64,000 nt of DNA from an uncultured Gammaproteobacteria bacterium (GCA_963809565.1 CAWEKE010000001.1:239452-303451), one strand, 5' to 3'. Shown: positions 305 to 40,804, numbered from the stretch's first letter. Notes: generated by a model from the letters alone, not told the origin. Program-made: numbers and translations.

Positions 305-1935
305 TGGCAACGCCTCCGGACCCGCGGCGGCTTATCCGTGCGCTGGCAGCCGAGGCCGTCAACGATCCGGCCGCCGCCATGGGCCGCTGTCGGCAGATCC
401 TGCAGCGGGCGCCGGCGAGCCTGCCGGTGCTGTGTATCGCGGCCGGCATCCAGAGACGCAGCGGCAAATTTGCCGAAGCTGCCGAACTGCTGGCGCGCGC
501 CGCAGCGGTCGACGCCGAGGCTTCGCCGGTGTTTGCCGAGCGCGCCGCGCTGGCCATGTCCTGTCAGGACTTCGAACTTGCCGCGCAGAGCCTCCGCGCG
601 CTGTTACAGCAGCATCCCGGGCAATCGGATTCGTGGTTCAACCTGGGCCTGGCGGAAGAGCAGCGCGGACGAGTTCAGGCTGCGATCGAGGCATTTGAAA
701 ACGCACTGAATCTGGCGCCGGACGGGTACCCGGCAGCCGGCGCCAGACTGGCTATGTTACTGGCCACGGTCGGTCGCGACGCCGATGCGCGGCAACGCGT
801 CGATCAGGCTCTGGCGGCAGACCCGGACCAGGTCGAAGCCCGCTACGCGCTGGGCATGCTGTTGCTGGCCGAAGGCAGGACGGAGCAGGCGCTGGCTCAG
901 TTCCGGCAGTGTGTGGCACGCCAGCCGGGGCTGGCCGGCGCATGGCAGCAACTGCTCGAGTGCCGCCGCATAGAAGATCCCGACGATCCCGAGTTGGCCG
1001 CGGCGCGTGCGCTTCTCGACCAGCCTGATGTCAGTCCCGCCGAGCGCGAACAACTGGCGATGGCTGTGGGCAAGGCGCTTGATGACCTGCACGACTACGC
1101 AGCCGCATTCGACTGCTTTCACCAGGCCAAACGTTCCAGGCGCAAGCGCTTGCCGGATTTCGACCGCGAGGCCTGGCGCGCAGCTACCGATGCCCGCATC
1201 GCAGCGCCGGTGCCAGCCTCGCCCTTCGCGCCCGGGGCGGCCGTTCAGCCGCTGTTTATCGTCGGCATGCCCCGCTCCGGCACGACGCTGGTGGATCAGA
1301 TCCTCACCGCGCATCCGCAGGCTGAAGGCGTCGGCGAACTCGCGTTTTTCGACCAGGCGGCAGAGCGGTTCTTTGCTGCGGGCCTGGAGCCCGACGCCGG
1401 GGCCGCGTTGCGAGCGGATTACTTGCGCCTACTGACCGCGACCGGGGCAACGGTGGTCAGTAACAAATACCCGGCGAACTTCCGCAACATGCCCTTGCTG
1501 CGCTGGCTGATGCCGGAAGCGCGCTTTGTGCACCTGCGCCGCAGCGCGCTGGATACCTGCCTGTCTGTCTATCTCCAGGACTTTCCGCTGGGCAACCTGT
1601 ACGCCAACGATCTGGAAGACATCGCTGCCTATTACGGCGACTACCGCAGGCTGATGACGCACTGGGCCGGGCGCAAGGATGATGTGCTGGAACTGACCTA
1701 CGAGGCGCTACTGAACGACCAGGCCGGTGTCACCCGACGATTGCTGGACTTTTGTGGTCTGGACTGGGACCCGGCGTGTCTGGACTTTGCCAGTAACCCG
1801 CGTCCGGTCGGAACGCTGAGCCGCTGGCAGGTGCGGCAGCCTATCTATGCGTCGTCGGTAGGCCGCTGGCGGCACTATGAAGCGCAGCTGGAGCCGCTGA
1901 TCAGAGCCCTGGGGCCCTGGGCGGATTCAGCCTAG
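304..1935 (+). CDS. TPR repeat + TPST-like sulfotransferase fusion (paralogue ST1)
   Basis: N-terminal Ala/Leu-rich TPR-like repeats (e.g. WFNLGLAEEQRGRVQAAIEAFENALNLAP). C-terminal sulfotransferase motifs: FIVGMPRSGTTLVDQILTAHP (5'-PSB loop), RFVHLRRSALDTCLSVYLQDF (3'-PB), GLDWDPACLDF, SRWQVRQPIYASSVGRWRHY. Start taken as GTG 304, which shares 1 nt with the upstream TAG; ATG 379 is an alternative. The track start at 118 would overlap the upstream gene. Confidence 0.85.
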   Translation: MATPPDPRRLIRALAAEAVNDPAAAMGRCRQILQRAPASLPVLCIAAGIQRRSGKFAEAAELLARAAAVDAEASPVFAERAALAMSCQDFELAAQSLRALLQQHPGQSDSWFNLGLAEEQRGRVQAAIEAFENALNLAPDGYPAAGARLAMLLATVGRDADARQRVDQALAADPDQVEARYALGMLLLAEGRTEQALAQFRQCVARQPGLAGAWQQLLECRRIEDPDDPELAAARALLDQPDVSPAEREQLAMAVGKALDDLHDYAAAFDCFHQAKRSRRKRLPDFDREAWRAATDARIAAPVPASPFAPGAAVQPLFIVGMPRSGTTLVDQILTAHPQAEGVGELAFFDQAAERFFAAGLEPDAGAALRADYLRLLTATGATVVSNKYPANFRNMPLLRWLMPEARFVHLRRSALDTCLSVYLQDFPLGNLYANDLEDIAAYYGDYRRLMTHWAGRKDDVLELTYEALLNDQAGVTRRLLDFCGLDWDPACLDFASNPRPVGTLSRWQVRQPIYASSVGRWRHYEAQLEPLIRALGPWADSA

Positions 1936-3849
1936 CTGCTGACCACCGGTTTCCGCCAGCTCGCCCAGCGGGCCTAACCAGTCGGCATAATGGCGCCAGC
2001 GGCCGATGGACCGCTGATGCAGGGGTTCCCTTACCTGGGCGTGACTCGCCGTTGCCGTCACCCGCTGCTGCGTGCTGAACTCCAGACACGCCGGATCCCA
2101 GTCCAGACCGCAGAATTGCAGCAGCTCGAGCAGGACCGGTTGCGGGGCCGTCACCAGACGCTCGTAATCCAGCGCAAATACCGGCGAATAATCTGCACAC
2201 CACTTCAGCATCAGCTGGCGATAGTGCGCCAGATAGCTGCTCAGCCAGTCCAGCCGCGTGGCAAATCCCAGTGCCTGATCCGCGAAATCGGTGAACAGGC
2301 ACGACAAGCCGGTATCGCGCAGGTCGCGACGGCAATGCACGATCCGGGCGTCCGGAAACACGCGGCGGATCAGCGGCAGATACCGGAAGTTCAACGGCAT
2401 CTTGTCGCTGATCAGTCGCGTGCCGGTCCCGGATGCCGGCAGACGACGGCGGTATTCATCGCCGAGCCGGCCAAGCAACGCCGGTCGTTCGTCCTCGCTG
2501 GCGCCGATAACCCGATGCACCAGCTCGCCGAAAAACGGCAACTCTCCCGCGCCGTGCACGCCCGGATGAGCCGCCAGCATTTGCTCCAGCAAGCTGGTGC
2601 CCGACCGCGGCAGGCCGATGATGAACAGCAGATCTGCGCCACCCTGACCAGCCGGCGTCTGTCCGGCCAGACGCTCGATCAAACGCGCCTCCCGGATCTG
2701 GGCGCCGGGGTCGAACGTCGCCGGTGTCAGCGCATTGGCCTGCTGATACCAGTCCCAGGCCTGGGCAAAATCGCCGAGCTCGTCACACACGTCACCGAGG
2801 CTGAAACAGAATGCACGACGACTGGAGCCTTCGGCCGGGATCGCCTCGGTGAGAATCGGCCGGGCTCGGGCAGGATCGCCAAGCCGACGCCACAAGCGAG
2901 CCTTCACCAGTGCCGGACCCGGCCGTTGCCGCGCCTGCGCGTCAAGGGTTTCGAGACTGTCCAGCCCGGCCTGGTATCGGCCTTGCCATTCCAGCAGCTC
3001 CGCTCGCCCCACCAGCGCATCCATGTTCCCTGGCATGAGTTCCAGCGCACGCTCGTATGCGGCTCCGGCCTGCGTGTACTCACCCACCGCCTGCAAGGTC
3101 ATCGCCAGACCGGCCTGCCAGCCGGCATGTTCGGGGTCGGCATCCACCGCTGCGCGCCAGGCGGAGAGGGCTTCGGTGAGCCGTCCCTGCTGTTTGCGCA
3201 GCCCGCCCAGCAGCGCGAGCCCGGCGCCATCAGCCGGGCGTCGCCGGAGCACCTCGGCAAGCGTCTGTTCCGCGGTGGCCAGATCGCCGCATTCGATACT
3301 GGCGCCGGCCAGGTTGGTCAACGTCCCGGGATCATCCGGTCGGTGAGACAAGCTGTGTCTGAAGCAGGCCAGCGCTTCCTCATACCTGCCCTGTTCCATC
3401 CGCAGGATGCCGTATTCGTTCCACGCCGGAGCGTGTCCAGGCGCTATTGCGACCGCTTGCGCGAGGGCCTGTTCAGCGATCTCAAGCCGGCCGGCCGCGT
3501 GCTCCAGCTGGCCCTGATAGAAAGTCGCATCGGCCGTCACCCGCGGGTCGCTCCTTGCTTCCGCGAAACACTCCGCTGCCTCACCGGTTTTGCCCTGTTG
3601 CATCAGCACGCGACCGAGCGTGAGGCACGCCGGGCCGTCCTTCCTTGCCTCCACGCAGCGCCGCGCGAGCCCTTCTGCCTGCTCGAGTTCACCGAGTTCA
3701 GCCGACGCCATCGCGGCCAGCAACAACAGATCCGGCTGGCGCGGATCAGACGCCAGCAAGCGACGATAGACCTCCAGCGCAGCCTCGGGCCGGCCATCGC
3801 GATGCCACTGCCTGGCCGAAGCCAGTTCGTCTCCGGGTTTAGTCGCCAT
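1927..3849 (-). CDS. TPR repeat + TPST-like sulfotransferase fusion (ST2)
   Basis: 640-aa ORF with N-terminal TPRs. Motifs: FIIGLPRSGTSLLEQMLAAHPGVHGAGEL, RIVHCRRDLRDTGLSCLFTDF, GLDWDPACLEF, SHAQVREPLHQRSIGRWRHY. Its ATG shares one nt with the stop codon of ST3 (TGATG at 3847-3851). Confidence 0.9.
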   Translation of the reverse strand: MATKPGDELASARQWHRDGRPEAALEVYRRLLASDPRQPDLLLLAAMASAELGELEQAEGLARRCVEARKDGPACLTLGRVLMQQGKTGEAAECFAEARSDPRVTADATFYQGQLEHAAGRLEIAEQALAQAVAIAPGHAPAWNEYGILRMEQGRYEEALACFRHSLSHRPDDPGTLTNLAGASIECGDLATAEQTLAEVLRRRPADGAGLALLGGLRKQQGRLTEALSAWRAAVDADPEHAGWQAGLAMTLQAVGEYTQAGAAYERALELMPGNMDALVGRAELLEWQGRYQAGLDSLETLDAQARQRPGPALVKARLWRRLGDPARARPILTEAIPAEGSSRRAFCFSLGDVCDELGDFAQAWDWYQQANALTPATFDPGAQIREARLIERLAGQTPAGQGGADLLFIIGLPRSGTSLLEQMLAAHPGVHGAGELPFFGELVHRVIGASEDERPALLGRLGDEYRRRLPASGTGTRLISDKMPLNFRYLPLIRRVFPDARIVHCRRDLRDTGLSCLFTDFADQALGFATRLDWLSSYLAHYRQLMLKWCADYSPVFALDYERLVTAPQPVLLELLQFCGLDWDPACLEFSTQQRVTATASHAQVREPLHQRSIGRWRHYADWLGPLGELAETGGQQLG

Positions 3850-5555
3850 CAGGCATTATCTTCCACCTGCTCAAGCAACTGTGCCAATGGCGCCAGGTGT
3901 TGCGCGTAGTCTTTATGGCGGCCGACCGCTGAAGTGTAGATCGGTCGTTGTACCTGCTCGTAGCTGGCCGTCGCGATAATCGGCTCAGCGACCGCGGCCG
4001 GACCTGCAGTGATCGACGGTGCGTCTGCGACACAGGCCGCATCCCAGTCCAGGCCAATAAAATCCAGCAACGCGCGGACCGTGCTTTCGGGCTCAGCCAC
4101 CAGCGACTCGTAGTTCAGCTCGAACAGGCCCACATCCAGCGTGGCCCGCCAGTGCCTCATCAGGCGCCGATAGTCAGCATAGTACGCAGCAATGTCCGGC
4201 AGCCGCCGGCTCCAGGCCAGAGCGGGGGCGCTGAAGTCCTGGCAAAAACAGGACAGCGCGACATCCATCGGCTCGCGCCGCAGGTGGATGATCCGGGCCT
4301 TGGGAAACAACACCTGGATCAAGCCGAGATGAAGAAAGTTAGCCGGCATCTTGTCAGTCACGCGTAAATGCGACCCGGCGCCAATCGAGGCCAGATAGGA
4401 CCGGGCCTCGTCACGCCACCGGGCTGCCGGGACCCGGCTCGTGATCAGCGCCGGATCCGGCGCCGGCCTCGAGCCGCGCAGACGTCGCTCGATATCGCCG
4501 ATACCGGTCGATTCACCGCCAGCATGGATCGATTGATGACGCGACAATATGCGCTCCACCAGGGATGTGCCCGAGCGCGGCATGCCGACGATGAACACCG
4601 GGGCATCGCTGTCGCTGCCGCGGTTCTGCAAGGAATGCAGGGTATCCCGGGTCCAGGTCTGCCGGATCGCAGCAACCCGAGCCCGATGCCGCTCGCAGTC
4701 GAACCCGCCAGGCAGCGCGGCGTTGGCTCGACAGTAGGCTTCGAATGCGGCGTCGAACTCGCCTGCGTCATGGTGCATATCGCCCCTGGCAAACAGCCAG
4801 CGTGCCCGCTGATGACTGGTCAATGTGTCCGGGGTCAACGACTCCAAAATCGCGCGCGCTGCTTCCGGATGCCCCGTCCGGCGCAACAGACGGGCATAGA
4901 CCAAAGCCATCTCGGGAGTACGGCCCTCGGCGGGCCCGTTTGCCCCGGTTGTCATCAACGGCTCGAGCAGCGCCAGGCCATGACGCGGTTGTCCACGCAC
5001 TTCATATTGCGCGGCCAATGCAGTCAGCGCCTCGACATGCCCGGGAGACAGCGCCAGCACGCTCTCCAGTTCTGCCCTTGATTCATCGAATCGCCCCTGG
5101 ATCTGCCATACGCCGGCCCGGCCAACGCGCGGCTCCACGTTACCGGGGGCCAGCGTCAAAGCGCGTTCGTAGGCATCCAGCGCCCGTTGGTAGGCGCCGG
5201 CAGCATGGCAGACCACGCCCAGCCGATACCACAGCCGGGGTCTCCCCGGCGTCTGCTCCAGCGCTTTCTCCAGTAAACGTATTGCGGCATCGAATTGTCC
5301 GGCAGTCATGGCCAGCGCAGCAGCGGTGTCGATCACGCGAGGATCGCCGGGGGCTCTGGCGCGTGCAGTGTCCAGGTCCGCTTTAGCCGCATCCACGCGC
5401 CCGGCACGCAAGTGCAGTTCTGCGCGCGCGCACAGCGCGGACATCGGCAGTGCGTCAGCGGGCAGCAGGCCCAGATCCTGCTCTGCCTCGCGCAGGCGTC
5501 CCGCGCGCAGATGCGCCATGGCTTGTTCCAACCTGGCGGAATCAGCGCGTTCCAT
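3849..5555 (-). CDS. TPR repeat + TPST-like sulfotransferase fusion (ST3)
   Basis: TPR N-terminus. Motifs: FIVGMPRSGTSLVERILSRHQSIHAGGES, RIIHLRREPMDVALSCFCQDF, GLDWDAACV, SYEQVQRPIYTSAVGRHKDY. Start chosen at ATG 5555 (MERADSARLEQ..), a 14-nt overlap with the ST4 stop; the track start at 5633 is the maximal ORF. Confidence 0.85.
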   Translation of the reverse strand: MERADSARLEQAMAHLRAGRLREAEQDLGLLPADALPMSALCARAELHLRAGRVDAAKADLDTARARAPGDPRVIDTAAALAMTAGQFDAAIRLLEKALEQTPGRPRLWYRLGVVCHAAGAYQRALDAYERALTLAPGNVEPRVGRAGVWQIQGRFDESRAELESVLALSPGHVEALTALAAQYEVRGQPRHGLALLEPLMTTGANGPAEGRTPEMALVYARLLRRTGHPEAARAILESLTPDTLTSHQRARWLFARGDMHHDAGEFDAAFEAYCRANAALPGGFDCERHRARVAAIRQTWTRDTLHSLQNRGSDSDAPVFIVGMPRSGTSLVERILSRHQSIHAGGESTGIGDIERRLRGSRPAPDPALITSRVPAARWRDEARSYLASIGAGSHLRVTDKMPANFLHLGLIQVLFPKARIIHLRREPMDVALSCFCQDFSAPALAWSRRLPDIAAYYADYRRLMRHWRATLDVGLFELNYESLVAEPESTVRALLDFIGLDWDAACVADAPSITAGPAAVAEPIIATASYEQVQRPIYTSAVGRHKDYAQHLAPLAQLLEQVEDNA

Positions 5556-7563
5556 GTTCGTAGCCGGCGGCGTCCAGGGCCTCGGCAAACGGCTCCAGGT
5601 GCTCACGGTAGTGACGCCAGGCGCCGACTTCACGTGAGTTGAGCGGCTGCCGGACCGGCGTATCGGCTGCGCTGGTCGCTACCCCGGGTTGATAGAATCG
5701 CAGGCAGGCCGGATCCCATTCCAGACTCAGAAATTCCACCAGCTGCCGACTGTAAGATTCCGGGCTTGTGACCAGTTCTTCATAGCGCAACTCAAACATC
5801 GCCAGCCCGCTGACATCACGCCAATGCCGCATCAGGCGCCGATACAGCTGGAAGTAGCGCACCATCGACTCGAGCTCGAAGGTAAAAGCCAGGCTGCGAC
5901 CAGCAAAGTTTTTCAGCCAACAGCGCAGGACCAGGTCCAGCGGGTGGCGCAGGCAGTGAATCACATGGGCATCAGGAAACAGCATCTCGATCAGACCCAG
6001 ATGGACAAAATTGAACGGCATCGTGTCGGTGACCCGCGCCACGTCGCCTGCGCGGGCATCAAGGCCTGCGAGATAGCGGCTGGCATGACGCTCGAGCTGC
6101 CGCCGATCAAGGCGCGCAACACCATCCGGCCAACCACCGCTCTCGCGGCCCAGGGCCATGCTGATGTCGCCGATCATGGTCAGCTCGCCGGCGCCGTGCA
6201 CCTGCGGATGGCTGCACAGAATCTGTTCCGCCAGCGACTTGCCGCTACGCGGCATGCCGACGATGAATACCGGCCTCGAACTCGGGGTCCGGGCGCGTGG
6301 TAATGCCGCCATGGCCGGTGCCGAGAATGCCCGACGGCTGGCCTCCACGGCGCCTTTCAATGCGTCCAGGTCGCGCCCCGGCACGCCGGCTGGCAGCGAA
6401 CGTCGACGCCATTCGTTGGCCTCGAGCGCGGTGTCCCATGCCTGCTGATACTCGCCACTCTCGTCCAGCACACGGGCCAGCGAAAAGCGTAACTGCGCCT
6501 GGCCCTCGGCCCCGATATGGGTCGACTCCAGTGCAGTCTCCAGCACCCGCCTGGCCTCCTCCAGCCGCCCCGTGTTGCGCAACAACCGCGCCTGGATCGG
6601 AGCCACCACGGCCGGATCGGGAGCAGGCCCGGTATTCAGCATGGCCAGGGCCTCATCATGGCGGCCGCGGTTATCCAGCCACGCCGCCAGGCCCGATCTC
6701 GCCTGGTCGTGGCCGGGGTTTACTGCCAGCGCGCGACGGAAATACTCGCCAGCCTGCGCGGGTTCACCCTGCGCCTGCAGCAGCTTCGCCAGGTTGGCCA
6801 GCGCATCGGCATCCTGCGGGTCTTTTTCCAGCGCTGTGCGGTAACACTCCTCGGCCTGATCAAACCGGCCCTGCAGCTGCAGCGATGCGCCCAGCCAGGT
6901 CCAGCCGACTGCGTTGACCGGATCCTGCTCCAGAAAGCGGCGCAACGCGCGTTCCGCATCGGAGTAACGGCCCAGCGCGTTGAGCACTCCGCCAAGTTGT
7001 AACCAGCCCGCGGCAAGCTCGGGTCGTTGCCGGGTCAATGTCTGCAGCGAACTCAATGCCTGCCCGGTGTCGCCTCTGCCCATTGCGGCCATGGCCAGAT
7101 TGAAATGCGCGGCCGCCAGCGCGGGATCGAGGTCAAGCGCCTGCTGAAACAGGTCCGCGGCCCGGTCCAGATTCCCCAGATTGCCGATGATCTCCCCGGC
7201 CTGATTATTGATCTGCGCCGTGCCCGGCTCCATGGCTACCGCAGACTCGACCTGCTCGATTGCGGCCGCGGTGTCCCCAAGCGAGGCCAGGCTTCGTGCC
7301 AGACTCAGTCGCGTCGGTGCGGAATCCGGATCCAGCCGAAGCGCTCGGTTTAACGCGTCTCTCGCGGCATCGGCTTGTCCCAAACGCTGTAGCAGCTCTC
7401 CGCTCAAACGCCAGGCGCCGGCTTCCTCCGGCGCGTCGGCAAGCGCTTGTTTACAAAGCTCCAGCGCCTGCGCGAGCTGCCCTTGCCTGGCCAGCGTCAT
7501 CGCCTGCCGGACGGTGCGGTCGATCGCCTGTGGCGGGACCTGCCTGGGCGCATCCGGGCTCAC
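5542..7563 (-). CDS. TPR repeat + TPST-like sulfotransferase fusion (ST4)
   Basis: 673 aa with a long TPR N-terminus. Motifs: FIVGMPRSGKSLAEQILCSHPQVHGAGEL, HVIHCLRHPLDLVLRCWLKNF, SLEWDPACLRF, VRQPLNSREVGAWRHY. GTG start overlaps the ST5 stop (GTGA at 7560-7563). Confidence 0.9.
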   Translation of the reverse strand: MSPDAPRQVPPQAIDRTVRQAMTLARQGQLAQALELCKQALADAPEEAGAWRLSGELLQRLGQADAARDALNRALRLDPDSAPTRLSLARSLASLGDTAAAIEQVESAVAMEPGTAQINNQAGEIIGNLGNLDRAADLFQQALDLDPALAAAHFNLAMAAMGRGDTGQALSSLQTLTRQRPELAAGWLQLGGVLNALGRYSDAERALRRFLEQDPVNAVGWTWLGASLQLQGRFDQAEECYRTALEKDPQDADALANLAKLLQAQGEPAQAGEYFRRALAVNPGHDQARSGLAAWLDNRGRHDEALAMLNTGPAPDPAVVAPIQARLLRNTGRLEEARRVLETALESTHIGAEGQAQLRFSLARVLDESGEYQQAWDTALEANEWRRRSLPAGVPGRDLDALKGAVEASRRAFSAPAMAALPRARTPSSRPVFIVGMPRSGKSLAEQILCSHPQVHGAGELTMIGDISMALGRESGGWPDGVARLDRRQLERHASRYLAGLDARAGDVARVTDTMPFNFVHLGLIEMLFPDAHVIHCLRHPLDLVLRCWLKNFAGRSLAFTFELESMVRYFQLYRRLMRHWRDVSGLAMFELRYEELVTSPESYSRQLVEFLSLEWDPACLRFYQPGVATSAADTPVRQPLNSREVGAWRHYREHLEPFAEALDAAGYEHGTR

Positions 7564-9548: not shown

Positions 9549-11448
9549 GACTACTTGCCTCAGTCATTGCTTCGCTCTGTGCCTGATCAAGAGCGGCGAG
9601 TACCGGAGCCAGCTGTTCGCGATAGGCGTCGCCCCGGCCCAGCTGGTTTGGATCCAGCGGTCCATGCAGCACTGGCGCTACCGACAGCCTGGATCGGGTC
9701 GGATCGCTATAAGCAGCGCAGCGGTCAGACCACTCCAGGCTCAGGAAATCCAGCATCCGCCTCAATTCACCCTCGGGGTCGGCGACCAGTCGCTCGAATT
9801 CGACATCGAGTATCTGGATATCCAGCGATTGCCAGTAGCTCATCAGGCGTTCGACGTTGGCCAGATACGCGCCGATCCAGGCAGGTGATGTGCTGAACGC
9901 CGTGACCTGGTCAGCAAAACCCCGCGCGTAGCAGGCCAGCGCGAGATCGAGCGGGTGGCGGCGGCAATAGATCACCTTCAGCCCCGGACACAGCGAGGCG
10001 GCCAGTCCTACGTGCATGAAATTCGTCGGCTGCGTATCGCTCAGGTGGGACGCAGAGCGGGCGCGCCGGGCCAGCGAGCTTGCATAGCTCTGAGAGGCCG
10101 TCTCCAGCATCTCCGGCTGCACGTCGGCCATGCATGCCGGATAGGGGTGGCGGGATCCGCTAAGTTCGCGCAAGGTTTCGGTCAGGTTGTTGAGCACACG
10201 CAATTCGCCGGCGCCGCGGACATCAGGATGGCAGGCGAGCATCTGCTCGCAGATGCTTTTGCCAGCCCGCGGCAAACCGACCAGCAAGACCGGCTGTGGC
10301 CCGGTCCAGCCGGCTGGCGCTGGGCTGATCTCCGGAAACGCGCTGATCAGCGCGTCGACAACCGCGGCAAACCGGGCCGGATCGAACCGCGCCGGGACCG
10401 CCTGGTTGGCGCTGGTCCACTCCCTCCACGCATCCTGGTGGCGACCCAGCGCATCCAGCGCGTCCCCGCGCAAACGGTGTAAACCCGCTCTGAGCTCCGG
10501 ACCCACGCGCGGATTGGCGATCCAGTCGCCGAGCCTGTCGACCGCCAGTTGATAGGCCCCTGTGTCCAGCCATAATCGGGCGGCGGTGACCATGATCGGC
10601 AATGCCGGCAAATCCAGTTCCAACGCGGGGGCGAGGAGCTCAAGACCCCGCGCTGCATGGCCGAGATGCAGGTCGAGCTCGGCGCTGCCGGCGAGTGCCA
10701 GCGGATCCCGCGGCCGGTTCTTGAGCACTGCGGAAAACGCGTCCCGCGCCTCTTCAAGTCGACCCACCGACTGCAGCAAACGTCCCAGCGCCGCGCGCCC
10801 GGCCACATCCTCCGGTGCCAGCCTGAGCGCCTGTTCGAGGCTCGCTTCGGCGTCGTCGACCTGATCCAGCGCCATCTGTGCCCGGGCCAGCGCGACCCAG
10901 GCCGGGACCCTGCGTTTGTCCTGCGCCAGCACCGCGCGAAAACAGGATACCGCGCGTTCGGGCCGCCCCTGCTCGAGGCAGATAGCGCCGAGGTTGTAAC
11001 GCGCCTGGAGATGACCAGGATGCTGATCCAGCACTTGCTCGAGGACCTCGGCCGCCTCTGCGGAACGTTGCGCGCGATGCAGCGCGACCGCTAACTGATA
11101 ACGGGCATCGGCAAGGTCCGGGTCCAGTTCCAATGCCCGCCGCAACGCATCGACGGCTGCTGTCGGCTGATCGACCATCAACATGCTGGTGCCCAGACCC
11201 GCATGGCCCTGAGCCTGGTCTGGACTGGCGGCAATAGCTTTGCGAAACGCCTGAGCCGCGGCCGCGTGGTCACCACATTGACCCTCCATGCTGGCCAACA
11301 GGCACCAGGCCCCTGCATCTCGCGGAGATTTTTCAAGATAACGCCGGTACATCGATCTGGCCGAGGCCAGATCCCCTGCCCGGTGCCGGGCCATGGCCGC
11401 GGCCAGTTCGGCTGGCGCGGCGTTATCAGGCACCCAGGAACCCGTCAT
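9541..11448 (-). CDS. TPR repeat + sulfotransferase fusion, most divergent paralogue (ST6)
   Basis: 635 aa with TPRs. Motifs: LLVGLPRAGKSICEQMLACHPDVRGAGEL, KVIYCRRHPLDLALACYARGF, SLEWSDRCAAY. The C-terminal QV(R)xPxY..S.GRW motif is not conserved. ATG 11448 has GGAAGG 8 nt upstream and overlaps the ST7 stop by 23 nt; alternative start at 11394. Confidence 0.85.
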   Translation of the reverse strand: MTGSWVPDNAAPAELAAAMARHRAGDLASARSMYRRYLEKSPRDAGAWCLLASMEGQCGDHAAAAQAFRKAIAASPDQAQGHAGLGTSMLMVDQPTAAVDALRRALELDPDLADARYQLAVALHRAQRSAEAAEVLEQVLDQHPGHLQARYNLGAICLEQGRPERAVSCFRAVLAQDKRRVPAWVALARAQMALDQVDDAEASLEQALRLAPEDVAGRAALGRLLQSVGRLEEARDAFSAVLKNRPRDPLALAGSAELDLHLGHAARGLELLAPALELDLPALPIMVTAARLWLDTGAYQLAVDRLGDWIANPRVGPELRAGLHRLRGDALDALGRHQDAWREWTSANQAVPARFDPARFAAVVDALISAFPEISPAPAGWTGPQPVLLVGLPRAGKSICEQMLACHPDVRGAGELRVLNNLTETLRELSGSRHPYPACMADVQPEMLETASQSYASSLARRARSASHLSDTQPTNFMHVGLAASLCPGLKVIYCRRHPLDLALACYARGFADQVTAFSTSPAWIGAYLANVERLMSYWQSLDIQILDVEFERLVADPEGELRRMLDFLSLEWSDRCAAYSDPTRSRLSVAPVLHGPLDPNQLGRGDAYREQLAPVLAALDQAQSEAMTEASSRG

Positions 11449-13297
11449 CTCGCAGACCTTCCAGCAGCGGACCGAGGTGCTGCCGGTAATGATCGGCGCG
11501 GCCGATGGATGTCGTGTAGACAGGGCGCTTTACCTGGGCGTGACTTGCCGTGCGCACCAATCGCGGGTTCTCGTAAAACCGGAGGCAGCCGGGGTCCCAT
11601 TCCAGACCGATGAACTTCAGCATCCGCCGGGTTGTGTCCTCGGTATCGCTGACCAGATCCTCATAGCGCACATCCAGCATCTGCAGCTCAAGGTGGTCTG
11701 CCCAGTGGTCCATCAGCCGCCGGTACTGGCCATAGTAATGGGCGATATCGCCGAGATCGTAACTGAACGGAGGTCCGGCGGTGCCAAAGCTCTGCTGGAA
11801 ACACGACAAGCCCGTGTCCACCGGATCGCGCAGACAGTGGATCACCCGCGCTCTCGGCAACACCAGCTGGATCAGTCCGAGTTGCTCGAAGTTCTGCCAC
11901 ATCTTGTCGGTAATCCGCTCGGCCTTGCCGCGGTTTCGCATCAAACGCTCGATATAGGCGGCTGTCGCTTCGCCAAGGGAACCGGAATCGATCGTCTCCA
12001 CGCATTCCGGATACGGGATACCGTGCTTGTTGCGCCCCAGGCTCATCGCCGCGAGCCCAAGTTCCCGGAGTTCCCCGGCGCCATAGATATCCTGGTGACT
12101 GGCCAGGATCTGCTCGACGAGAGACGTGCCGGAACGAGGCATACCGACGATAAACACCGGGTACTCGTTGTCCCGGTCACAATGCGGGAGCCGGGACATG
12201 TTGTCCCGGTTGAACACATTCATCAACCGCTCGATCTCGCGCTCCCGACCGGCACGAGAATAATTACCGGAGTGAAACTTGTTCGCGCGGCGGTAGTGAG
12301 CGAAAGCACGATCATAGTCCTGCAGATCGTCGAGCAAATCGCCGAGGGTGAAATGGATCGCTGACCGCTCATGATCAGACAGACCCTCGGCCTTGGCCAG
12401 CGGCGCCAGGTGCAACAGCGCTTCCTTGCTGCGCTCCAGCCGACGCAGCAGGCGAGCGTAGGCGACGTGCATGGTCGGGCTGGCGGTGCCCTGCTTCAGG
12501 TACGGCAACAATATGGCGATGCCGCGTTTGAACTCTCCATTGAGTTCCAGCAATCCCGCCAGTGCCGCCAGTGACGGCGCGTGGTCCGGGTCTATTTCCA
12601 GCGCGGTTTCAAATCCTGCCGCGGCGATCTTCAGCTCGCCCATTGCCATCAATACCGAGGACAAATTGCTGAACACATCAGCATCGCGCTCGCCTTCGGC
12701 GATGACCTGCCGGTAATTGTGCACCGCCTCGTCCAGACGACCGACCTGGTGCTGAGCGATGGCCAGGTTGTAGCGGCCGGGTCGGTTGGTCATCTCCTCC
12801 TTCAGCCCACGCTCAAGATGACGGATGGCCAGTTCGATATGCCCCTGCTCATACAGCATCGAACCCAGATTGAGATTGGCGTTGCCATGGTCGGGTTTGT
12901 GCGAGAGCGCGGTACGGAAACACTGTTCCGCTGCCTCCTTATACCCTTTGCGCCGCAGCACGTGGCCCAGATTGCTGTGCGCGTCAGCGAACTGCGGGTC
13001 CAGTTCCAGAGCCTGTCTGAAATCGCTCTCCGCCTGATCCAGTTCATCGCGATTATTGAGGATGCGCCCGCGAATATTGAACAGCAGCGGATCGCTGGTA
13101 TCCAGATCCAGCGCCTGATTGATGAACTCCCAGGCCAGATCCGGCCGGTTTTGCTTCAGGCGCACCTCGGCCATCAGGCGCAGCGCCCACACATGGTCCG
13201 GCCTTTCGGCGAGTACCGACTGGCAGATCGTTTCCGCTTCGCCCACCCTGCGATCCCGCAGACCGCGCTCCGCCCGTTGCAGATCCATCTGGAACAC
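11426..13297 (-). CDS. TPR repeat + TPST-like sulfotransferase fusion (ST7)
   Basis: 623 aa with TPRs. Motifs: FIVGMPRSGTSLVEQILASHQDIYGAGEL, RVIHCLRDPVDTGLSCFQQSF, GLEWDPGCLRFY, SHAQVKRPVYTTSIGRADHY. GTG start at 13297 has GGAGG 6 nt upstream and lies 20 nt downstream of the preceding stop. Confidence 0.9.
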   Translation of the reverse strand: MFQMDLQRAERGLRDRRVGEAETICQSVLAERPDHVWALRLMAEVRLKQNRPDLAWEFINQALDLDTSDPLLFNIRGRILNNRDELDQAESDFRQALELDPQFADAHSNLGHVLRRKGYKEAAEQCFRTALSHKPDHGNANLNLGSMLYEQGHIELAIRHLERGLKEEMTNRPGRYNLAIAQHQVGRLDEAVHNYRQVIAEGERDADVFSNLSSVLMAMGELKIAAAGFETALEIDPDHAPSLAALAGLLELNGEFKRGIAILLPYLKQGTASPTMHVAYARLLRRLERSKEALLHLAPLAKAEGLSDHERSAIHFTLGDLLDDLQDYDRAFAHYRRANKFHSGNYSRAGREREIERLMNVFNRDNMSRLPHCDRDNEYPVFIVGMPRSGTSLVEQILASHQDIYGAGELRELGLAAMSLGRNKHGIPYPECVETIDSGSLGEATAAYIERLMRNRGKAERITDKMWQNFEQLGLIQLVLPRARVIHCLRDPVDTGLSCFQQSFGTAGPPFSYDLGDIAHYYGQYRRLMDHWADHLELQMLDVRYEDLVSDTEDTTRRMLKFIGLEWDPGCLRFYENPRLVRTASHAQVKRPVYTTSIGRADHYRQHLGPLLEGLRDDGFLGA

Positions 13298-13317
13298 TGT
13301 TCACCTCCGCCCGGTGA

Positions 13318-14970
13318 TTATCGTTCCCCGGGGGCGTCGCGGCCAGCGCCGGCCGCCGCGGGACGGAATACCGGGTGATCCTCGGGCCAGGCACGTGACG
13401 CCGGCTGCTGCCGGCGATAGGCCTCGAGCAACCGTTGGGCCTCCCGGGCCTGCTCCTCGCCCTCGGCTGCAGAGGCCTGATACACACGGGTCTGCATTTG
13501 CACCGCTTGCTGCCAGCGGCCGTTGGCCGCCAGAGCCATGGCCAGGGTTTCGGCATGAGCATAATCGGGTCGTGCCCGGAATATCGTGTTAGCGTATTCC
13601 AGGGCCAGGCGCAGGCGCTCCGCCGTGGCACCAGGGCAGCTCGCGTAGCTGCGCGCCAGGGCCTGCATGACTTCCCCGCTGCCAGGCTGAGCCTCCAGCG
13701 CGCTTTCGAACGCATCCAGGGCGCGCGGACAGTTGCCCGAGGCCAGCGCCGCGAGCCCGGCACGATAGGCGAAGATCGCGACCTGCTCCGGAGGCGGCAC
13801 GGCTGCAGCATAGACCGCCAGGGCCTCTTCGTAGCGTTTCATGCGCATCAGCGCATTACCCAGACGCAGACTCGCCAGCGAGTAGCCGGGATCAGCGCTC
13901 AGCGCGGCGCGATAGTCGTCGACGGCGCCCGCCTCATCACCGAGTTCCTCGCGTATCGCGCCCCGCCGGTATCTGGCCGGACCGAAATCCGGATCGATCT
14001 CGAGTGCCCGCTCAAACTCCGCCAGCGCGGCTGCGCTCTGGCCGGTCTGGAGCAGTCCCTGACCGAGACTGACTCGCGCTGCCGCATCGTCGGGGTTGTA
14101 TTCCACGGCGCGCTGGAACTCCATTACCGCTTCGTCCTCGCGGCCGGCACGTGACGCGGCGTAACCGCGCTCCAGATAATATTGGGCGCTGCGTGAACGA
14201 GCGGCCATATCCGCCAGGATGGGATCGGCCACTGCAGGATCGGTGCTGCCCTTGAGCAGCAAATTGCGCTGCGCCTGCTCCACCTGGCCTTGCTGTCGGT
14301 AAGCCATGGCCAGCGGATAACGCAGCCGGTCAGCGCCCGGATCGGCGGTCAGCGCCTGTTCGAAGAAGCTGATCGCCTGCAGGTATTCGCCACGTTCGAG
14401 CGCCACCTGGCCGAGACCCGCCAGCGCCGCCGGCTGGCCCGGTCGGGCCTCCAGCACGGCGGTGAAATCCACTTGCGCGGCATCCAGCTGGCGCCGCTTT
14501 AACTGCACCTGGGCCCGTCGCAGCAAGCCTGGCAGATAAGCCGGATCGAGTCTCAACGCGATTTCGTAGTTCTCCAGCGCCGCGTCAAGCTCGCCGGTCT
14601 CCTGATACAGATAGCCGAGCAGATAGCGCCAGCGGAACTCCTCCGGCTGGTACTTTGCTGCCACGAGATAGCACTGACGGGCCAGCGACTGCAGATGATG
14701 AGCCTGATAAGTCATGCCCAGCTCGCCCCATGCCGCGCCGGTGTTTGCCGGGTCCGCAATGCTGCTGCGGAAGTCCGTGAGCGCCTGAGCCAAAGCCTGC
14801 CGCACACCAGGCTCAAAATCCTCCAGTGCCGGGGCTGGCGGCGCAGCGGGATCAGCCGCGCTCGCCGCGGCGCTCGCTGCGGCACCGGCCGCCAGGCAAA
14901 GCCAGGCGAGGAAAAGCACTGCGCCAGGCTGGCGCAGGCGCCGCGCGGACGGACAGGCCGGCCGGTTCAT
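13318..14970 (-). CDS. secreted TPR-repeat protein with no catalytic domain
   Basis: N-terminal signal peptide (LFLAWLCLAAGAAASAAASA) followed by TPR-like repeats throughout. ATG overlaps the upstream stop (ATGA at 14967-14970). Confidence 0.85.
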   Translation of the reverse strand: MNRPACPSARRLRQPGAVLFLAWLCLAAGAAASAAASAADPAAPPAPALEDFEPGVRQALAQALTDFRSSIADPANTGAAWGELGMTYQAHHLQSLARQCYLVAAKYQPEEFRWRYLLGYLYQETGELDAALENYEIALRLDPAYLPGLLRRAQVQLKRRQLDAAQVDFTAVLEARPGQPAALAGLGQVALERGEYLQAISFFEQALTADPGADRLRYPLAMAYRQQGQVEQAQRNLLLKGSTDPAVADPILADMAARSRSAQYYLERGYAASRAGREDEAVMEFQRAVEYNPDDAAARVSLGQGLLQTGQSAAALAEFERALEIDPDFGPARYRRGAIREELGDEAGAVDDYRAALSADPGYSLASLRLGNALMRMKRYEEALAVYAAAVPPPEQVAIFAYRAGLAALASGNCPRALDAFESALEAQPGSGEVMQALARSYASCPGATAERLRLALEYANTIFRARPDYAHAETLAMALAANGRWQQAVQMQTRVYQASAAEGEEQAREAQRLLEAYRRQQPASRAWPEDHPVFRPAAAGAGRDAPGER

Positions 14971-16757
14971 CGCTGCCCGGCGATGCTCACGCCCTCGCCT
15001 TGGCGCAGCGTGTGATAACGACTTGTCGCCAATTGCGGAAAGCGCTCCTCGGTCCCGTCAGGCCAGACAATATGCACATCGCGCTTACCGCCGGCGGTCC
15101 CCAGGCCAAATAGAACGCGCGGATCGTTGGCCGAGGCATAGCTGCCATCCGCACGCACCCGGCTCCAGCGTCTGGGGTCGGCGATCAATTCAACCCTGGC
15201 GCCGAGCGCATCGCGGCCGCCGCTGGCAGTGATCAGCCTCAGGCCGAGCCACTCATTGCGGTCGCCGACCAGGTTCTGCAGCACACGCGCGGGGCCGGCG
15301 TTGTTGGAGATCAGCACATCCGTATCGCCGTCGTTGTCGAGGTCGCCGAACGCGGCGCCGCGACTTACCCGCAACGCCTGAAATGCCGGCCCGGCGCTGG
15401 CGCTGACGTCCGCGTAACGGCCATCGCCGAGATTGTGAAACAGCTGATTGGCTTGCCGTAATGGCAGCAGTTCATCCGCCAGCATCTGCTCTTCGATCGC
15501 AGTGACGGCGCCATTGACTACCAGTAAATCCAGCCAGCCGTCGTTGTCATAGTCGATCCAGCCGGTACCAAACCCCGTCGAGGCAAAGCTGGGGCCCGCC
15601 AGACCCATGGCTACGGTCCGGTCCTGGAACCAGCCGTTGCCGTCATTCACGTACAGGGTATTGGTCTCGCGCGCCAGATGAGTCATGAACAGATCTTCGT
15701 CACCGTCGCCGTCAAAATCCGCAGCATCGACGCCCATGCTGGCTTCCGGACTGCCATCCATGTTGACGCTGACACCGGCAAGGACCGCATCGTTGATGAA
15801 CCGTCCATGCTGGTCGTTGATCCAGAGCTGGTTGGGTACGCCGTCATTGGCAACATAAATATCCGGCCAGCCGTCACCATTAAAGTCCGCGGCGATGACG
15901 CCGAGCGCGCCGCCGAAATCGCCACGGATGCCGACCTTGAGGCTGACATCTTCGAACGTCCCGTCGCCGCGATTACGAAACAGGCTGTCTGGCAGCGGTT
16001 CATAGACCAGCGGTGAACAGTAGTCCCGGGCGCTGGTGGATGAGCGGCAGGGCTTGGCATTGGCCAGGGAGAAATCCACGTAATTACCGACATAGAGATC
16101 GAGCCAGCCGTCTCGGTCATAGTCCAGCCAGGCCGCGCTGACGCTCCAGCGCGGGTCGTCGACCCCGGCTTTTGCAGTCACGTCAACGAAACGGCCATTG
16201 CCGGCATTGCGCCATAGCTGATTGGAGCCAAAGTTGGTCACATACAGATCGGGGCGACCATCGTTGTCATAGTCAGCCACCGTCACGCCCATGCCGTAAC
16301 CAGTCGCGTTCAGACCGGATTGTGCGGTGACGTCGACAAACTTCAGCTGCCCGTCTGCGCTGTCGTTACGGTACAGCCGGTCGGTCAGCGGCAATGGATG
16401 GCGCGGTTTGAACGTCGCCTCGCTGAGCGGCTTGTCGCCCAGCATGTGACCCTGGACCAGATAGAGATCCAGATCGCCGTCCCCGTCGTAGTCGAGCAAT
16501 CCGGCACCCGAGCCCATCATCTCGGTGAAATAGAGCTCCCCGCTCATGCCATTGAAGTGTTCAAACTCGAGACCGGAGGCCTCGGTGACATCAGCGAAAA
16601 TCGGCTCCGCGCGGACCGCGGCCGATACCAGCAACAGCCCTCCGAAAAGCGCTATCGCGCAGCGGGTGGCGGGCCTGCCTGTGCGCCTGAACGGCTTGTG
16701 AAACAAGGACTTTGACATCGACAATTGCGCTGACTTCGGGGCGCGAAAGCATACCAC
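14967..16757 (-). CDS. CRTAC1-family protein (FG-GAP/VCBS repeats + ASPIC/UnbV domain), secreted
   Basis: Signal-like N-terminus (AIALFGGLLLVSAAVRA). Repeated Ca-binding FG-GAP loops: LDYDGDGDLDLYLV, ADYDNDGRPDLYVT, LDYDRDGWLDLYVG, ADFNGDGWPDIYVA, ADFDGDGDEDLFMT, IDYDNDGWLDLLVV, GDLDNDGDTDVLIS. C-terminal UnbV/ASPIC-like segment (GARVELIAD..YASANDPRVLFGLG..VHIVWPDGTEERF). The maximal ORF starts at GTG 16757; ATG 16718 (MSKSLFHK..) is a plausible alternative. Confidence 0.85.
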   Translation of the reverse strand: MVCFRAPKSAQLSMSKSLFHKPFRRTGRPATRCAIALFGGLLLVSAAVRAEPIFADVTEASGLEFEHFNGMSGELYFTEMMGSGAGLLDYDGDGDLDLYLVQGHMLGDKPLSEATFKPRHPLPLTDRLYRNDSADGQLKFVDVTAQSGLNATGYGMGVTVADYDNDGRPDLYVTNFGSNQLWRNAGNGRFVDVTAKAGVDDPRWSVSAAWLDYDRDGWLDLYVGNYVDFSLANAKPCRSSTSARDYCSPLVYEPLPDSLFRNRGDGTFEDVSLKVGIRGDFGGALGVIAADFNGDGWPDIYVANDGVPNQLWINDQHGRFINDAVLAGVSVNMDGSPEASMGVDAADFDGDGDEDLFMTHLARETNTLYVNDGNGWFQDRTVAMGLAGPSFASTGFGTGWIDYDNDGWLDLLVVNGAVTAIEEQMLADELLPLRQANQLFHNLGDGRYADVSASAGPAFQALRVSRGAAFGDLDNDGDTDVLISNNAGPARVLQNLVGDRNEWLGLRLITASGGRDALGARVELIADPRRWSRVRADGSYASANDPRVLFGLGTAGGKRDVHIVWPDGTEERFPQLATSRYHTLRQGEGVSIAGQR

Positions 16758-16792
16758 GGCAGACGCTGCCGGCTGTGCTAACCTGCCCGCTC

Positions 16793-17887
16793 ATGAACGG
16801 TCCACATCCGGACTCCATGCCGCCTGGTCAGATGCCGGGCGACCTGCTGCGCGATCTCGCCGACGATCCCGCGTGGTTTCTGCGCGACGTCGACCCGATT
16901 CGTGGCCAGGCGATATTTTCGCCGATGGACGAAGCCAGTTATCAGGCCTCGATCTTCCTCGACAACCGCATCCAACGCGCCGGACCGCGCGACCTCGTGG
17001 TGGACCTGGACGGGCTGCTGCGCCTGGCCCACAAGCTGAATCTGCCGCCGCGCCCGATCCACTATATTTTCCACATCGGGCACTGCGGGTCGACCCTGAT
17101 ATCCACCATCCTCGGCGGGCTCGACGGTTTTCTTGCCTTGCGCGAACCACCGATGCTGATGGGGCTCTCTCGCAGCATGCGCCATCTGGATCAAACCGGG
17201 TTCCCGATCTCCCGCGAGCGCTGGGAGCAACTGTCGCAACTGGCGCTGAGGCTGCTGGGCAGGACCTGGCGGCCGACGCAAACCGTGCTGGTCAAGCCCA
17301 CCAGCCACGCCGGAAACCTGATTCCGCTGTTGATGGGTTTCACCGGGCGGGAACGGGCCCTGCTCCTGCACGTTGGCCCGGAGACGTATCTGACGACCAT
17401 GCTGCGCGCGGAAGTGCGGCGGGAGACGATGCTGTTCGCGAGAGACTTCCGGCTACGCGACTTCGTCACCTTGATGCCGGAAATGCCAGACTCGGTCGAG
17501 GCCTATCGGCCCGGGGAGCTGGCCGCGATGAGCTGGCTGTTGCACGCGCGCGAGCTGGCCGCCGTGATGGAGGCCGGCGCCTTGCACGAGCGCACGCTGG
17601 GACTGGACTTCGATCGCTTTCTCGCGGATCCGGAGCCATCGCTGCGACAAGTGTGTGAGTTCTTCTCGCAGCCCGCTGACGACGCAACATTGCAACGACT
17701 CCTCGCGATTCACGGCAGGCGCAGCGCCAAGGACCCCGGACGCAGTTATGACCACGCCCGGCGGCAGGCCGATCTGGGTGCGGCCAGCAAGACGTACGCG
17801 GAGGAAATCAGCGCCGGGCTGCGCTGGGCTGAACGGATCCAGACTCAGGGTGGTCCGTTCAGCAGGCTGCGCGAGCGCCTGGGCTAG
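16793..17887 (+). CDS. hypothetical protein, possibly a divergent sulfotransferase-like / P-loop-like protein
   Basis: The only recognisable element is IHYIFHIGHCGSTLISTILGG..LREPP, which resembles a PAPS 5'-PSB loop (h-h-G-x-x-R/C-S/G-G-S/T-T-L). I see no clear 3'-PB motif. Start chosen at ATG 16793 to avoid overlapping the divergent gene. Confidence 0.4.
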   Translation: MNGPHPDSMPPGQMPGDLLRDLADDPAWFLRDVDPIRGQAIFSPMDEASYQASIFLDNRIQRAGPRDLVVDLDGLLRLAHKLNLPPRPIHYIFHIGHCGSTLISTILGGLDGFLALREPPMLMGLSRSMRHLDQTGFPISRERWEQLSQLALRLLGRTWRPTQTVLVKPTSHAGNLIPLLMGFTGRERALLLHVGPETYLTTMLRAEVRRETMLFARDFRLRDFVTLMPEMPDSVEAYRPGELAAMSWLLHARELAAVMEAGALHERTLGLDFDRFLADPEPSLRQVCEFFSQPADDATLQRLLAIHGRRSAKDPGRSYDHARRQADLGAASKTYAEEISAGLRWAERIQTQGGPFSRLRERLG

Positions 17888-22551: not shown

Positions 22552-22771
22552 AAGTGTTTGATTCTCCGCCTGATGCAGGCAAAACATATAATTATCCCCT
22601 TTTGCCACGCAGGCGCAAGAAAGGCCGGTGGACCGCAGCGGGACCGTCGTAACGGAACGTATCCGGCGAATCAGGGGTCGGGAAATCCAGCATGGCGGGT
22701 GACATCGGGCCCATGGGCGCGGTGCCCCGATTCTGCTACCGTGACGCGCAGTCGAAGTTCAGGACAACCGG

Positions 22772-25549: not shown

Positions 25550-25690
25550 GAATCTGATTTCCCGTTCCCGGTGTCGGGAACTCCGTCCTCCATTATGGCG
25601 GTTTCGCTCCGCTTACGCAGAATTCATCATCGTGGAAGGATGACCGTGGCGGAATCCGGAACACGCGCTCCCGCAAGACGCGAGAGGGGA

Positions 25691-34666: not shown

Positions 34667-34810
34667 CTGTCTTTTTGACCCCGGTTGGCAACAGCGGCAG
34701 GCGGCGGATGCGTAAGACTGAATTTGTATTCTAAACGTTGCGTCGCCGCAGGCGCAGCGGGAGCGGCGCATGGCGATGCGGAAGTCTTTGTACTATAGTC
34801 TTGAGCTGAA

Positions 34811-34828: not shown

Positions 34829-34866
34829 CAATGTTTTTTAGTCAGGAACCCCGGGAGACTTCGTCG

Positions 34867-38969: not shown

Positions 38970-39009
38970 GCCTGCCTGCAGGCGCAGCAAGCCTGTTTTC
39001 GATCGGCAG

Positions 39010-39963: not shown

Positions 39964-40113
39964 GGCTATCCTGACCTTTGCTGTCTGACCGGCATGGGTG
40001 CCGGTTCGCCCGCGGTCCCGGGCCTGAGGGGCCCCCGGATCGCCGGGCGGCAGTGTCGAAAACTGCGTTATTGTCCTCCGTTTGGCCCCTTCAGTAAAAC
40101 TGGCAGGCTAATC

Positions 40114-40800: not shown

Positions 40801-40804
40801 TTGC

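Follow-up and report, generated by a model that had tools for sequence, protein, structure and literature searches.

Among the modifications that secreted proteins undergo in animals and plants, protein tyrosine sulfation is a major one; in bacteria it is, to our knowledge, known essentially from one pair, RaxST and RaxX. Here we describe a stretch of DNA of 64,000 nucleotides from an uncultured Gammaproteobacteria bacterium (GCA_963809565.1 CAWEKE010000001.1:239452-303451; hereafter the window), in which a string of eight minus-strand genes (positions 1927-16757) encodes a CRTAC1-like protein, a tetratricopeptide repeat (TPR) protein and six TPR-sulfotransferases (STs), numbered ST7 to ST2. 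Some bacteria, it appears from this locus and its relatives, keep a conserved, ordered set of 6-10 enzymes resembling the tyrosylprotein sulfotransferases (TPSTs), together with apparently inactive partners and linked hydroxylases. We see an even chance that this region forms the centre of a conserved protein-modification locus, made up of several operons, in uncultured Gammaproteobacteria, and that its STs act as a team.

The closest enzymes of solved structure are the eukaryotic TPST1, TPST2 and a tick TPST, which have the same 5'-phosphosulfate-binding loop (5'-PSB), glutamate base, Lys158 equivalent and R...S 3'-phosphate-binding motif (3'-PB) as the canonical STs of the window. TPSTs are type II membrane proteins of the Golgi lumen, without TPRs and encoded by one or two genes, whereas the STs of the window are predicted to be cytoplasmic, carry ~10 TPRs each and come in ordered batteries of 6-10 paralogues that include a conserved degenerate clade. 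Their architecture, in which a C-terminal transferase domain comes after a long TPR superhelix at the N-terminus, is the one found in OGT and SPINDLY; the catalytic domain of those proteins, however, is a GT41 glycosyl/fucosyl transferase and not a sulfotransferase, and the likeness is therefore an analogy of design with no enzyme homology. RaxST of Xanthomonas oryzae is a cytoplasmic, TPST-like enzyme that depends on 3'-phosphoadenosine 5'-phosphosulfate (PAPS) and modifies the RaxX polypeptide before export; it is a single small enzyme without TPRs, and it adjoins the genes for the precursor, raxX, and for a peptidase-containing ABC exporter, raxA/raxB. Lastly, the CRTAC1-like protein of the window is, like vertebrate CRTAC1/ASPIC and bacterial UnbV_ASPIC proteins, an FG-GAP propeller with a C-terminal UnbV_ASPIC domain and predicted to be exported, but the literature searched describes no pairing of such proteins with a dedicated TPR protein or a sulfotransferase array. 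The cluster as a whole is not described in the literature found by searches on CRTAC1/ASPIC/UnbV and TPR-sulfotransferases.

An old, ordered gene string

The eight open reading frames (ORFs) of a preliminary description of this DNA were recovered at their earlier coordinates by a six-frame ORF scan, and Pfam searches and a check of the junctions reproduced their domain content and all seven junction strings. In the order of the string, the features are as follows.

14967-16718, minus strand: CRTAC1-like exported beta-propeller, after revision of its start (ORF 14967-16757); Pfam FG-GAP_3 x6 and UnbV_ASPIC
13318-14970, minus strand: exported all-TPR protein; Pfam TPR only
13298-13317, minus strand: spacer with GGAGG, 20 nt between TPR and ST7
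11426-13297, minus strand: ST7, canonical TPR-sulfotransferase; Pfam Sulfotransfer_3 (E 1.5e-46), ~10 TPRs, TPST-like domain
9541-11448, minus strand: ST6, variant-clade TPR-sulfotransferase, candidate non-catalytic partner; motifs and tree
7560-9548, minus strand: ST5, canonical TPR-sulfotransferase; Pfam, tree and motifs
5542-7563, minus strand: ST4, variant-clade TPR-sulfotransferase; motifs and tree
3849-5555 (ORF to 5633), minus strand: ST3, canonical TPR-sulfotransferase; Pfam, motifs and start alignment
1927-3849, minus strand: ST2, canonical TPR-sulfotransferase, last in the string; Pfam and motifs

All six STs consist of an N-terminal TPR region and a C-terminal Sulfotransfer_3 domain. 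NCBIfam added generic TPR matches only, all sub-threshold, and neither Rfam nor tRNA scans gave any match in the window. A plus-strand ORF antisense to ST2 (1990-3909, 639 aa), wholly inside the Pfam-supported ST2, is a high-GC shadow and no gene; further long antisense ORFs occur opposite other genes.

The order of the string is not peculiar to this genome; the lack of synteny elsewhere that the preliminary description named as refuting its reading is thus not what is found. Related contigs, which are independent assemblies found through homologues of the exported TPR protein and of ST6, carry CRTAC1-TPR followed by six TPR-STs in five cases: L001 (88% identical to the window), L003 (79%) and L009 (51%) by the TPR protein, and L014 (65%) and L015 (44%) by ST6. 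The full order CRTAC1-TPR-ST7-ST6-ST5-ST4-ST3-ST2 is met again in lineages with orthologues that share only 43-70% identity with those of the window. All five loci also have a divergent U391 gene and an ST8-type gene upstream (both described below), and all but L015 have a 2-oxoglutarate (2OG) oxygenase between the upstream STs. In L010 (44%) and L011 (45%, labelled Burkholderiales), an exported TPR gene is followed by four to six ST units; the CRTAC1 gene is visible in L010, and the L011 contig begins at the TPR gene. Across loci, the junctions are almost everywhere between -23 and +22 nt, and every gene has a ratio of nonsynonymous to synonymous substitution rates (dN/dS) of 0.05-0.22 when compared with L001 and L003. 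An ST-domain tree and best-hit typing give each ST paralogue of the window a 1:1 orthologue in the same position in L001, L014, L009 and L015, and in L010 and L011 the ST types again follow one another in the same relative order. Since each ST has a positional orthologue, the array is an old and ordered set.

TPST-like catalytic domains on OGT-like arms

What kind of enzymes are these? ST1 to ST9 (ST1, ST8 and ST9 lie outside the string) all match Sulfotransfer_3 (PF13469, cut-off 27 bits) with E-values of 1e-33 to 1e-46. Whole-protein searches with ST7, against PDB sequences and by Foldseek, were swamped by TPR matches, and the ST domain was therefore searched alone. When a profile built from the seven canonical ST domains of the window was searched against PDB, the seven best matches were TPST1, TPST2 and tick TPST only (E 1.8e-22 to 8.7e-21); the next families were OLS (7.7e-12) and CurM (2e-10), with cytosolic SULTs at 1e-8 or worse. 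The ST7 domain by itself likewise has tyrosylprotein sulfotransferases as its best PDB matches. In the alignment, GMPRSGTS matches the 5'-PSB of the TPSTs, while the Glu in 'GAGE' lines up with Glu99/100 and the Lys in 'TDK' with Lys158/159. The 5'-PSB motif GxPRSGT[TS] and the R...S 3'-PB are present in ST1, ST2, ST3, ST5, ST7, ST8 and ST9, and the equivalents of TPST2 Arg78, Glu99 and Lys158 are conserved in all canonical paralogues and their orthologues, the Lys being replaced by Thr in ST4 and ST6. Alanine mutants of these three TPST2 residues have substantially reduced activity (PMC10951654). The canonical STs are, in computed fold and in motifs, TPST-like, and we infer that they are PAPS-dependent O-sulfotransferases.

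The AlphaFold2 (AF2) model of ST7, the most conserved member (dN/dS 0.05), has a mean confidence score (pLDDT) of 90 and consists of ~10 TPRs, whose helical repeats span residues 2-340, and an alpha/beta domain after them. Foldseek places this TPR arm nearest in structure to the TPRs with which OGT and SPINDLY bind their substrates.

A TPST-like domain on such an arm points to a protein acceptor, and several facts weigh against that reading. Sulfotransfer_3 also contains non-protein sulfotransferases, OLS and CurM being the second-best solved relatives, and TPR domains also act as general scaffolds. Among the large ORFs of the window, Pfam searches turned up neither an ABC transporter nor a C39 peptidase nor a HlyD-type protein, annotation of the same ORFs revealed no precursor-peptide gene, and RaxST-type precursor or exporter genes are missing from the syntenic loci as well; in precursor and exporter, the locus departs from a system of the RaxST-RaxX type. 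Moreover, we know of no sulfated Sec substrates in bacteria. The breadth of Sulfotransfer_3 and the lack of precursor and exporter genes, together with two plain Sulfotransfer_1 genes, an ELM1-like gene and an LpxL-like lipid A acyltransferase gene 20-25 kb away in the window, would fit an acceptor that is not a protein but an envelope glycan, lipopolysaccharide (LPS) or lipid A, an exopolysaccharide or a small metabolite. In that case the TPR arms would be scaffolds only, and outside the cytoplasm the sulfated product would be bound or processed by the exported CRTAC1-like propeller and TPR protein. We regard such an acceptor as unlikely: TPSTs lie ahead of all other solved sulfotransferases by ~10 orders of magnitude, the conserved core of seven lineages is without glycosyltransferase, polysaccharide-export or lipid genes, and both the union of a TPR arm with a catalytic domain and fusion with P4H-like/2OG oxygenases are typical of protein-modifying enzymes.

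Variant sulfotransferases and fused units

The array has a pattern of its own, running canonical-variant-canonical-variant-canonical-canonical from ST7 to ST2. ST6 carries GLPRAGKS at the 5'-PSB, DT for DK, Ala for the 3'-PB Ser and a degenerate C-terminal motif; ST4 carries GMPRSGKS, DT and Arg for the 3'-PB Ser. Both belong to a separate, ancient variant clade, which in every lineage has the 5'-PSB GxPRxGK[ST], has lost the Lys158 equivalent, has Ala or Arg for the 3'-PB Ser, has a degenerate form of the C-terminal TASxxQV and keeps the Glu. The type is rare, making up 11 of 120 ST6 matches, every one an array member or near one, and it is under purifying selection, with dN/dS of 0.19 for ST6 and 0.22 for ST4.

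Evidence on how the variants relate to the canonical enzymes comes from gene fusions. An exhaustive profile search for this ST type returned 30,742 representative clusters, and among the best 148 of these, 61 have 2-4 TPR-ST units in one polypeptide. A canonical unit is fused to a variant unit in three places: in L011 (1175 aa), in P0365, with 85% identity across the joint, and in P0363, which belongs to another assembly and is colinear over 1016 aa at 42% identity. A frameshift artefact was considered for the L011 fusion and rejected, given the further fused homologues at 85% and 42% identity; judged by these comparisons, the canonical+variant fusion is evolutionarily maintained and not an assembly error. 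Canonical+variant fusions in other organisms argue for heteromers, and TPST1 and TPST2 form both homodimers and heterodimers (PMC5562738). Together with the gene order, the conserved fusions suggest that each variant subunit pairs with the canonical one that precedes it, as ST7:ST6 and ST5:ST4, and that ST6 and ST4 are most likely partners that are non-catalytic or altered in function.

The preliminary description had proposed that the six paralogues act together, as a complex or on shared clients. Ordered 1:1 orthologues, polypeptides of 2-4 units, the maintained canonical+variant fusion and the dimers formed by TPSTs all support joint action; a physical complex of the STs is a prediction from gene arrangement.

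Are the variants inactive? Counting against inactivity, and so against active/inactive pairs, the clade keeps the catalytic Glu, and its 5'-PSB is altered (Thr to Lys) rather than lost; the variants might still bind nucleotide or catalyse a different reaction. ST6 and ST4 could, for example, have changed chemistry or nucleotide preference and perform a distinct step, using adenosine 5'-phosphosulfate (APS) or ATP, or acting on a 2OG-hydroxylated residue. Purifying selection (dN/dS ~0.2) fits such a function as well, and the G-x4-G-K-S motif resembles a Walker A loop, for which reason we keep a Walker-A or kinase reading as a minor rival. A distinct step of this kind nevertheless seems distinctly unlikely to us, as the Lys158 equivalent, the 3'-PB Ser and the C-terminal TASxxQV have been lost together, and the TPST2 alanine mutants at Arg78, Glu99 and Lys158 are substantially less active (PMC10951654).

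Transcription and translation of the string

As described earlier, the string is a compact, co-directional unit: all eight genes lie on the same strand, there is no room between them for promoter/terminator pairs, and the arrangement is conserved across lineages. The absence of an internal terminator hairpin was also borne out. Terminator-like matches are at chance level (11 observed against 10.8 expected in shuffled sequence), as are promoter-like matches; the strongest hairpin, at 14937-14919, is unremarkable (z -0.25) and not conserved in relatives, so that a role as terminator or attenuator was rejected; and no minus-strand promoter emerged from a sigma-70 scan. CRTAC1 to ST2 probably form one polycistronic unit.

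Translational coupling is a more complicated matter. The CRTAC1/TPR junction is ATGA (-4 nt, 14967-14970); ST6 and ST5 overlap by 8 nt (GTGGCTGA); the ST5/ST4 junction is GTGA (-4 nt, 7560-7563); and ST3/ST2 is TGATG (-1 nt). ST7/ST6 overlap by 23 nt, or by 8 nt with an alternative GTG start, and ST4/ST3 by 14 nt, with an internal ATG at 5555. TPR/ST7 is the sole junction with a canonical Shine-Dalgarno sequence, a GGAGG 7 nt before the ST7 GTG, inside the 20-nt spacer. Among 2.66 million gene pairs, the commonest distances are -4, -1 and -8 nt; termination-reinitiation operates from about -8 to +10 nt and all but disappears near +20 nt (PMC10666635). CRTAC1/TPR and most ST/ST junctions fall within -8 to +10 nt and thus in the same class as translationally coupled, complex-encoding operons, whereas TPR/ST7 (+20, with its own Shine-Dalgarno sequence), ST4/ST3 (-14) and, unless the GTG start is used, ST7/ST6 (-23) lie outside the experimentally supported range. 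With a +20-nt spacer and its own GGAGG, the ST block would be uncoupled from the exported pair. In other words, the coupled translation proposed for the whole string is plausible, as read from the junctions, for CRTAC1-TPR and from ST to ST but not from the exported pair to the ST block.

The overlaps are also less unusual than the preliminary description held. Short overlaps are over-represented in genes for heteromeric complexes, and only ~30% of such pairs in Escherichia coli encode complex subunits (PMC10666635), but -4, -1 and -8 nt are the commonest distances in prokaryotes, and 4-nt overlaps are present between neighbouring, unrelated genes of the window (27571-27574, 30381-30384 and 33668-33671), so that the overlaps here are ordinary, though supportive. 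That ordinariness is one ground for supposing that the STs are merely tandemly expanded paralogues with independent clients, their overlaps reflecting everyday compaction and implying neither complex nor stoichiometry. The array length, which varies from 4 units in L010 through 6 in the window to 0 in L005, points the same way. So does ST1, which is on the opposite strand, such that co-transcription is not essential for every member, and this tells against a single co-expressed team. Independent action is still improbable in our judgement: the 1:1 positional orthology is strict and the order is conserved over deep divergence, the canonical units alternate with a degenerate clade never seen outside arrays among the matches examined, and multi-unit fusions, including the maintained canonical+variant one, are recurrent.

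Start codons and a candidate control element

Comparison with relatives bears on several start codons. The ST7 GTG aligns with an ATG in L009, and the ST3 ATG at -14 is kept in the window, L001, L003 and L009. For ST6, L003 has only the GTG at -8 and not the ATG at -23, and the alignment indicates that GTG at -8 may be the start. The CRTAC1 gene itself was confirmed, but the start first assigned to it, GTG 16757, sits within a conserved non-coding motif, and in L009 and L015 this motif is shifted in frame against the downstream ATG. Because this motif changes frame between lineages, CRTAC1 most likely starts at ATG 16718, a choice that yields MSKSLFHK... followed by a good signal peptide. The motif lies in the divergent U391/CRTAC1 promoter region.

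16751-16780, minus strand: bipartite non-coding motif, TAGCACAG-N14-CCGTGGTAT, 30 bp

It occurs once in the window, against 0 copies expected, and exactly once, in the same place, in every locus with a divergent U391/CRTAC1 pair (counted over ten loci fetched from related contigs, which represent seven distinct genomic places). The half-sites are invariant and form an imperfect inverted repeat, the spacer is variable, and the right half reads as an extended -10 (TGgTATGCT) towards CRTAC1. The motif is thus a candidate operator and extended -10 of the CRTAC1 operon, and transcription would be expected to start near 16740, ~7 nt downstream of TGGTATGCT. A sigma-54 reading was rejected on inspection by eye, as the spacing does not fit.

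The wider locus

The system had been bounded at 1927-16757; these limits are too narrow. Five further features belong, on conserved neighbourhood, to the same system, and the eight-gene unit is not self-contained.

118-1935 (true start probably downstream of 118), plus strand: ST1, canonical TPR-sulfotransferase; Pfam, tree and typing
16793-17887, plus strand: U391, cryptic sulfotransferase-fold protein, 364 aa; AF2 and Foldseek
17925-19733, minus strand: ST8, canonical TPR-sulfotransferase, upstream unit; Pfam, tree and typing
19815-20432, minus strand: 2OG-Fe(II) oxygenase, PF13640, prolyl-hydroxylase-like, 205 aa; Pfam
20422-22608, minus strand: ST9, canonical TPR-sulfotransferase of GFPRSGTT type; Pfam, tree and typing

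ST1 and ST2 are convergent, and their 3' ends overlap by 9 nt (1927-1935), so that terminators have no room between the two genes; L014 and L015 show a convergent overlap of this kind as well, of 4 nt. The ST1 orthologue of L014 ends a convergent operon that runs from a TPR-2OG-TPR-ST fusion through a 2OG_Oxy_5 gene to ST1. Such fusions of TPR, 2OG-FeII_Oxy_5, TPR and Sulfotransfer_3, of ~966-969 aa, occur in L010 (19592-21587, minus strand) and L014 (21676-21872, minus strand), in both at the far end of the ST array and on the opposite strand. A window counterpart of these fusions would lie just off the left edge.

U391 has no Pfam match at default settings and a weak match to PF13469. Its AF2 model (pLDDT 92.5) has TPST1 as its best Foldseek match, the best 50 being PAPS sulfotransferases without exception, and alignment places its start at M28. 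A homologue in Marinicauda algicola (L012) adjoins a 2OG-Fe(II) oxygenase. A genome scan for the U391 family found three species only, and taxonomic breadth is therefore taken from metagenome contigs. The 2OG oxygenase at 19815-20432 is a conserved neighbour in L001, L003, L014, L009 and L005.

The exported pair and its link to the sulfotransferases

Signal-peptide-like hydrophobic N-termini are found in CRTAC1 and the TPR protein and in none of the STs, which agrees with the earlier prediction that the pair is secreted and the STs are cytoplasmic. The pair is itself well conserved: CRTAC1 has a dN/dS of 0.06-0.07 against L001 and L003, and the ATGA overlap of the two genes is kept in L001, L003, L005 and L009. 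An exact-match lookup of the exported TPR protein of the window returned no record.

How firmly are the STs tied to this pair? The functional tie put forward in the preliminary description is favoured by recurrent synteny, and two loci count against it. L005 has 2OG-ST8-U391-CRTAC1-TPR but no array, a 119-aa TPR remnant following instead, and L013 has a CRTAC1-TPR pair (33% identical) without any ST, beside a nos cluster and a type II secretion system (T2SS). With the pair also found in these loci without the array, the link is recurrent but not obligatory. At 6 of 14 positions, a tyrosine invariant in ST-linked CRTAC1 is Phe or Leu in the unlinked orthologue, a comparison with a single outgroup that is too weak to use.

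A possible mechanism and its significance

If the STs do act as a team on proteins, how might the locus work? The transcript would start at the control element at 16751-16780 and run from CRTAC1 through TPR, ST7, ST6, ST5, ST4 and ST3 to ST2. CRTAC1 and TPR would be translated in a coupled manner through their ATGA and both be exported; translation of the ST block would re-initiate at its own GGAGG and then be chained by the overlaps of -23/-8, -8, -4, -14 and -1 nt. The STs would be cytoplasmic, PAPS-dependent O-sulfotransferases of the TPST type, each most likely holding an extended polypeptide client in its OGT-like TPR superhelix. ST7, ST5, ST3 and ST2, which keep the full catalytic set, would be the active members, and ST6 and ST4 would each pair with the preceding canonical enzyme, as TPSTs dimerise. 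ST8, ST9, ST1, U391 and the 2OG oxygenases would add further modifications to the same clients, for which the co-encoded exported proteins are candidates.

At its most specific, this reading describes a multi-enzyme bacterial protein-sulfation machine of active and pseudo-sulfotransferase pairs, aided by 2OG oxygenases, that places multiple sulfates (and hydroxyls) on unfolded pre-secretory proteins, most plausibly CRTAC1 and TPR, ahead of their export; in this full form we think it unlikely. Were it true, it would be the first such machine seen in bacteria, its product would be an extracellular-matrix-like sulfoprotein, and the >30,000 representative TPR-ST clusters would imply a large hidden bacterial sulfoproteome. 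If the STs act on proteins at all, the locus represents a new bacterial system of post-translational modification, a tractable model for the choice of sites by active/pseudo-enzyme pairs and an entry to a very large uncharacterised family. With other acceptors, it would still give Gammaproteobacteria of sediment and soil a new way to make sulfated compounds, whether of the envelope or secreted.

Other genes of the window

Beyond ST9 lies a second, diverged module on the same strand (23861-34771, minus), three of whose junctions are the 4-nt overlaps mentioned above, preceded by two small genes.

22772-23368, plus strand: small exported protein with a low-complexity linker, 198 aa, no Pfam match
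23372-23839, minus strand: DUF4826 protein
23861-25549, minus strand: second exported TPR paralogue
25691-27574, minus strand: second CRTAC1-like gene
27571-30384, minus strand: membrane protein, 937 aa, with a cytochrome c554-like region and TPR
30381-33671, minus strand: TPR+FG-GAP fusion, 1096 aa
33668-34771, minus strand: CN-hydrolase

The DUF4826 gene and an unannotated ORF adjoin the second TPR paralogue in the same position and orientation in L001, L003 and L010. A further sulfation-related block spans 38058-43978 and may be related to envelope or LPS modification.

39010-39963 and 41965-42972: two plain Sulfotransfer_1 genes
39994-40800: second PF13640 oxygenase
40805-41902: ELM1-like gene
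42986-43978: LpxL-like lipid A acyltransferase

Between the module and this block are two more genes, the first of which lies in the 0.9 kb that separate the CN-hydrolase from the patatin-Omp85 gene, which itself lies just upstream of the island.

34831-35568, plus strand: 245-aa protein with a long, Lys/Ala-rich (AKKK-repeat), histone-H1-like C-terminal tail
35661-37880, minus strand: patatin-like phospholipase fused to an Omp85-type beta-barrel, 739 aa

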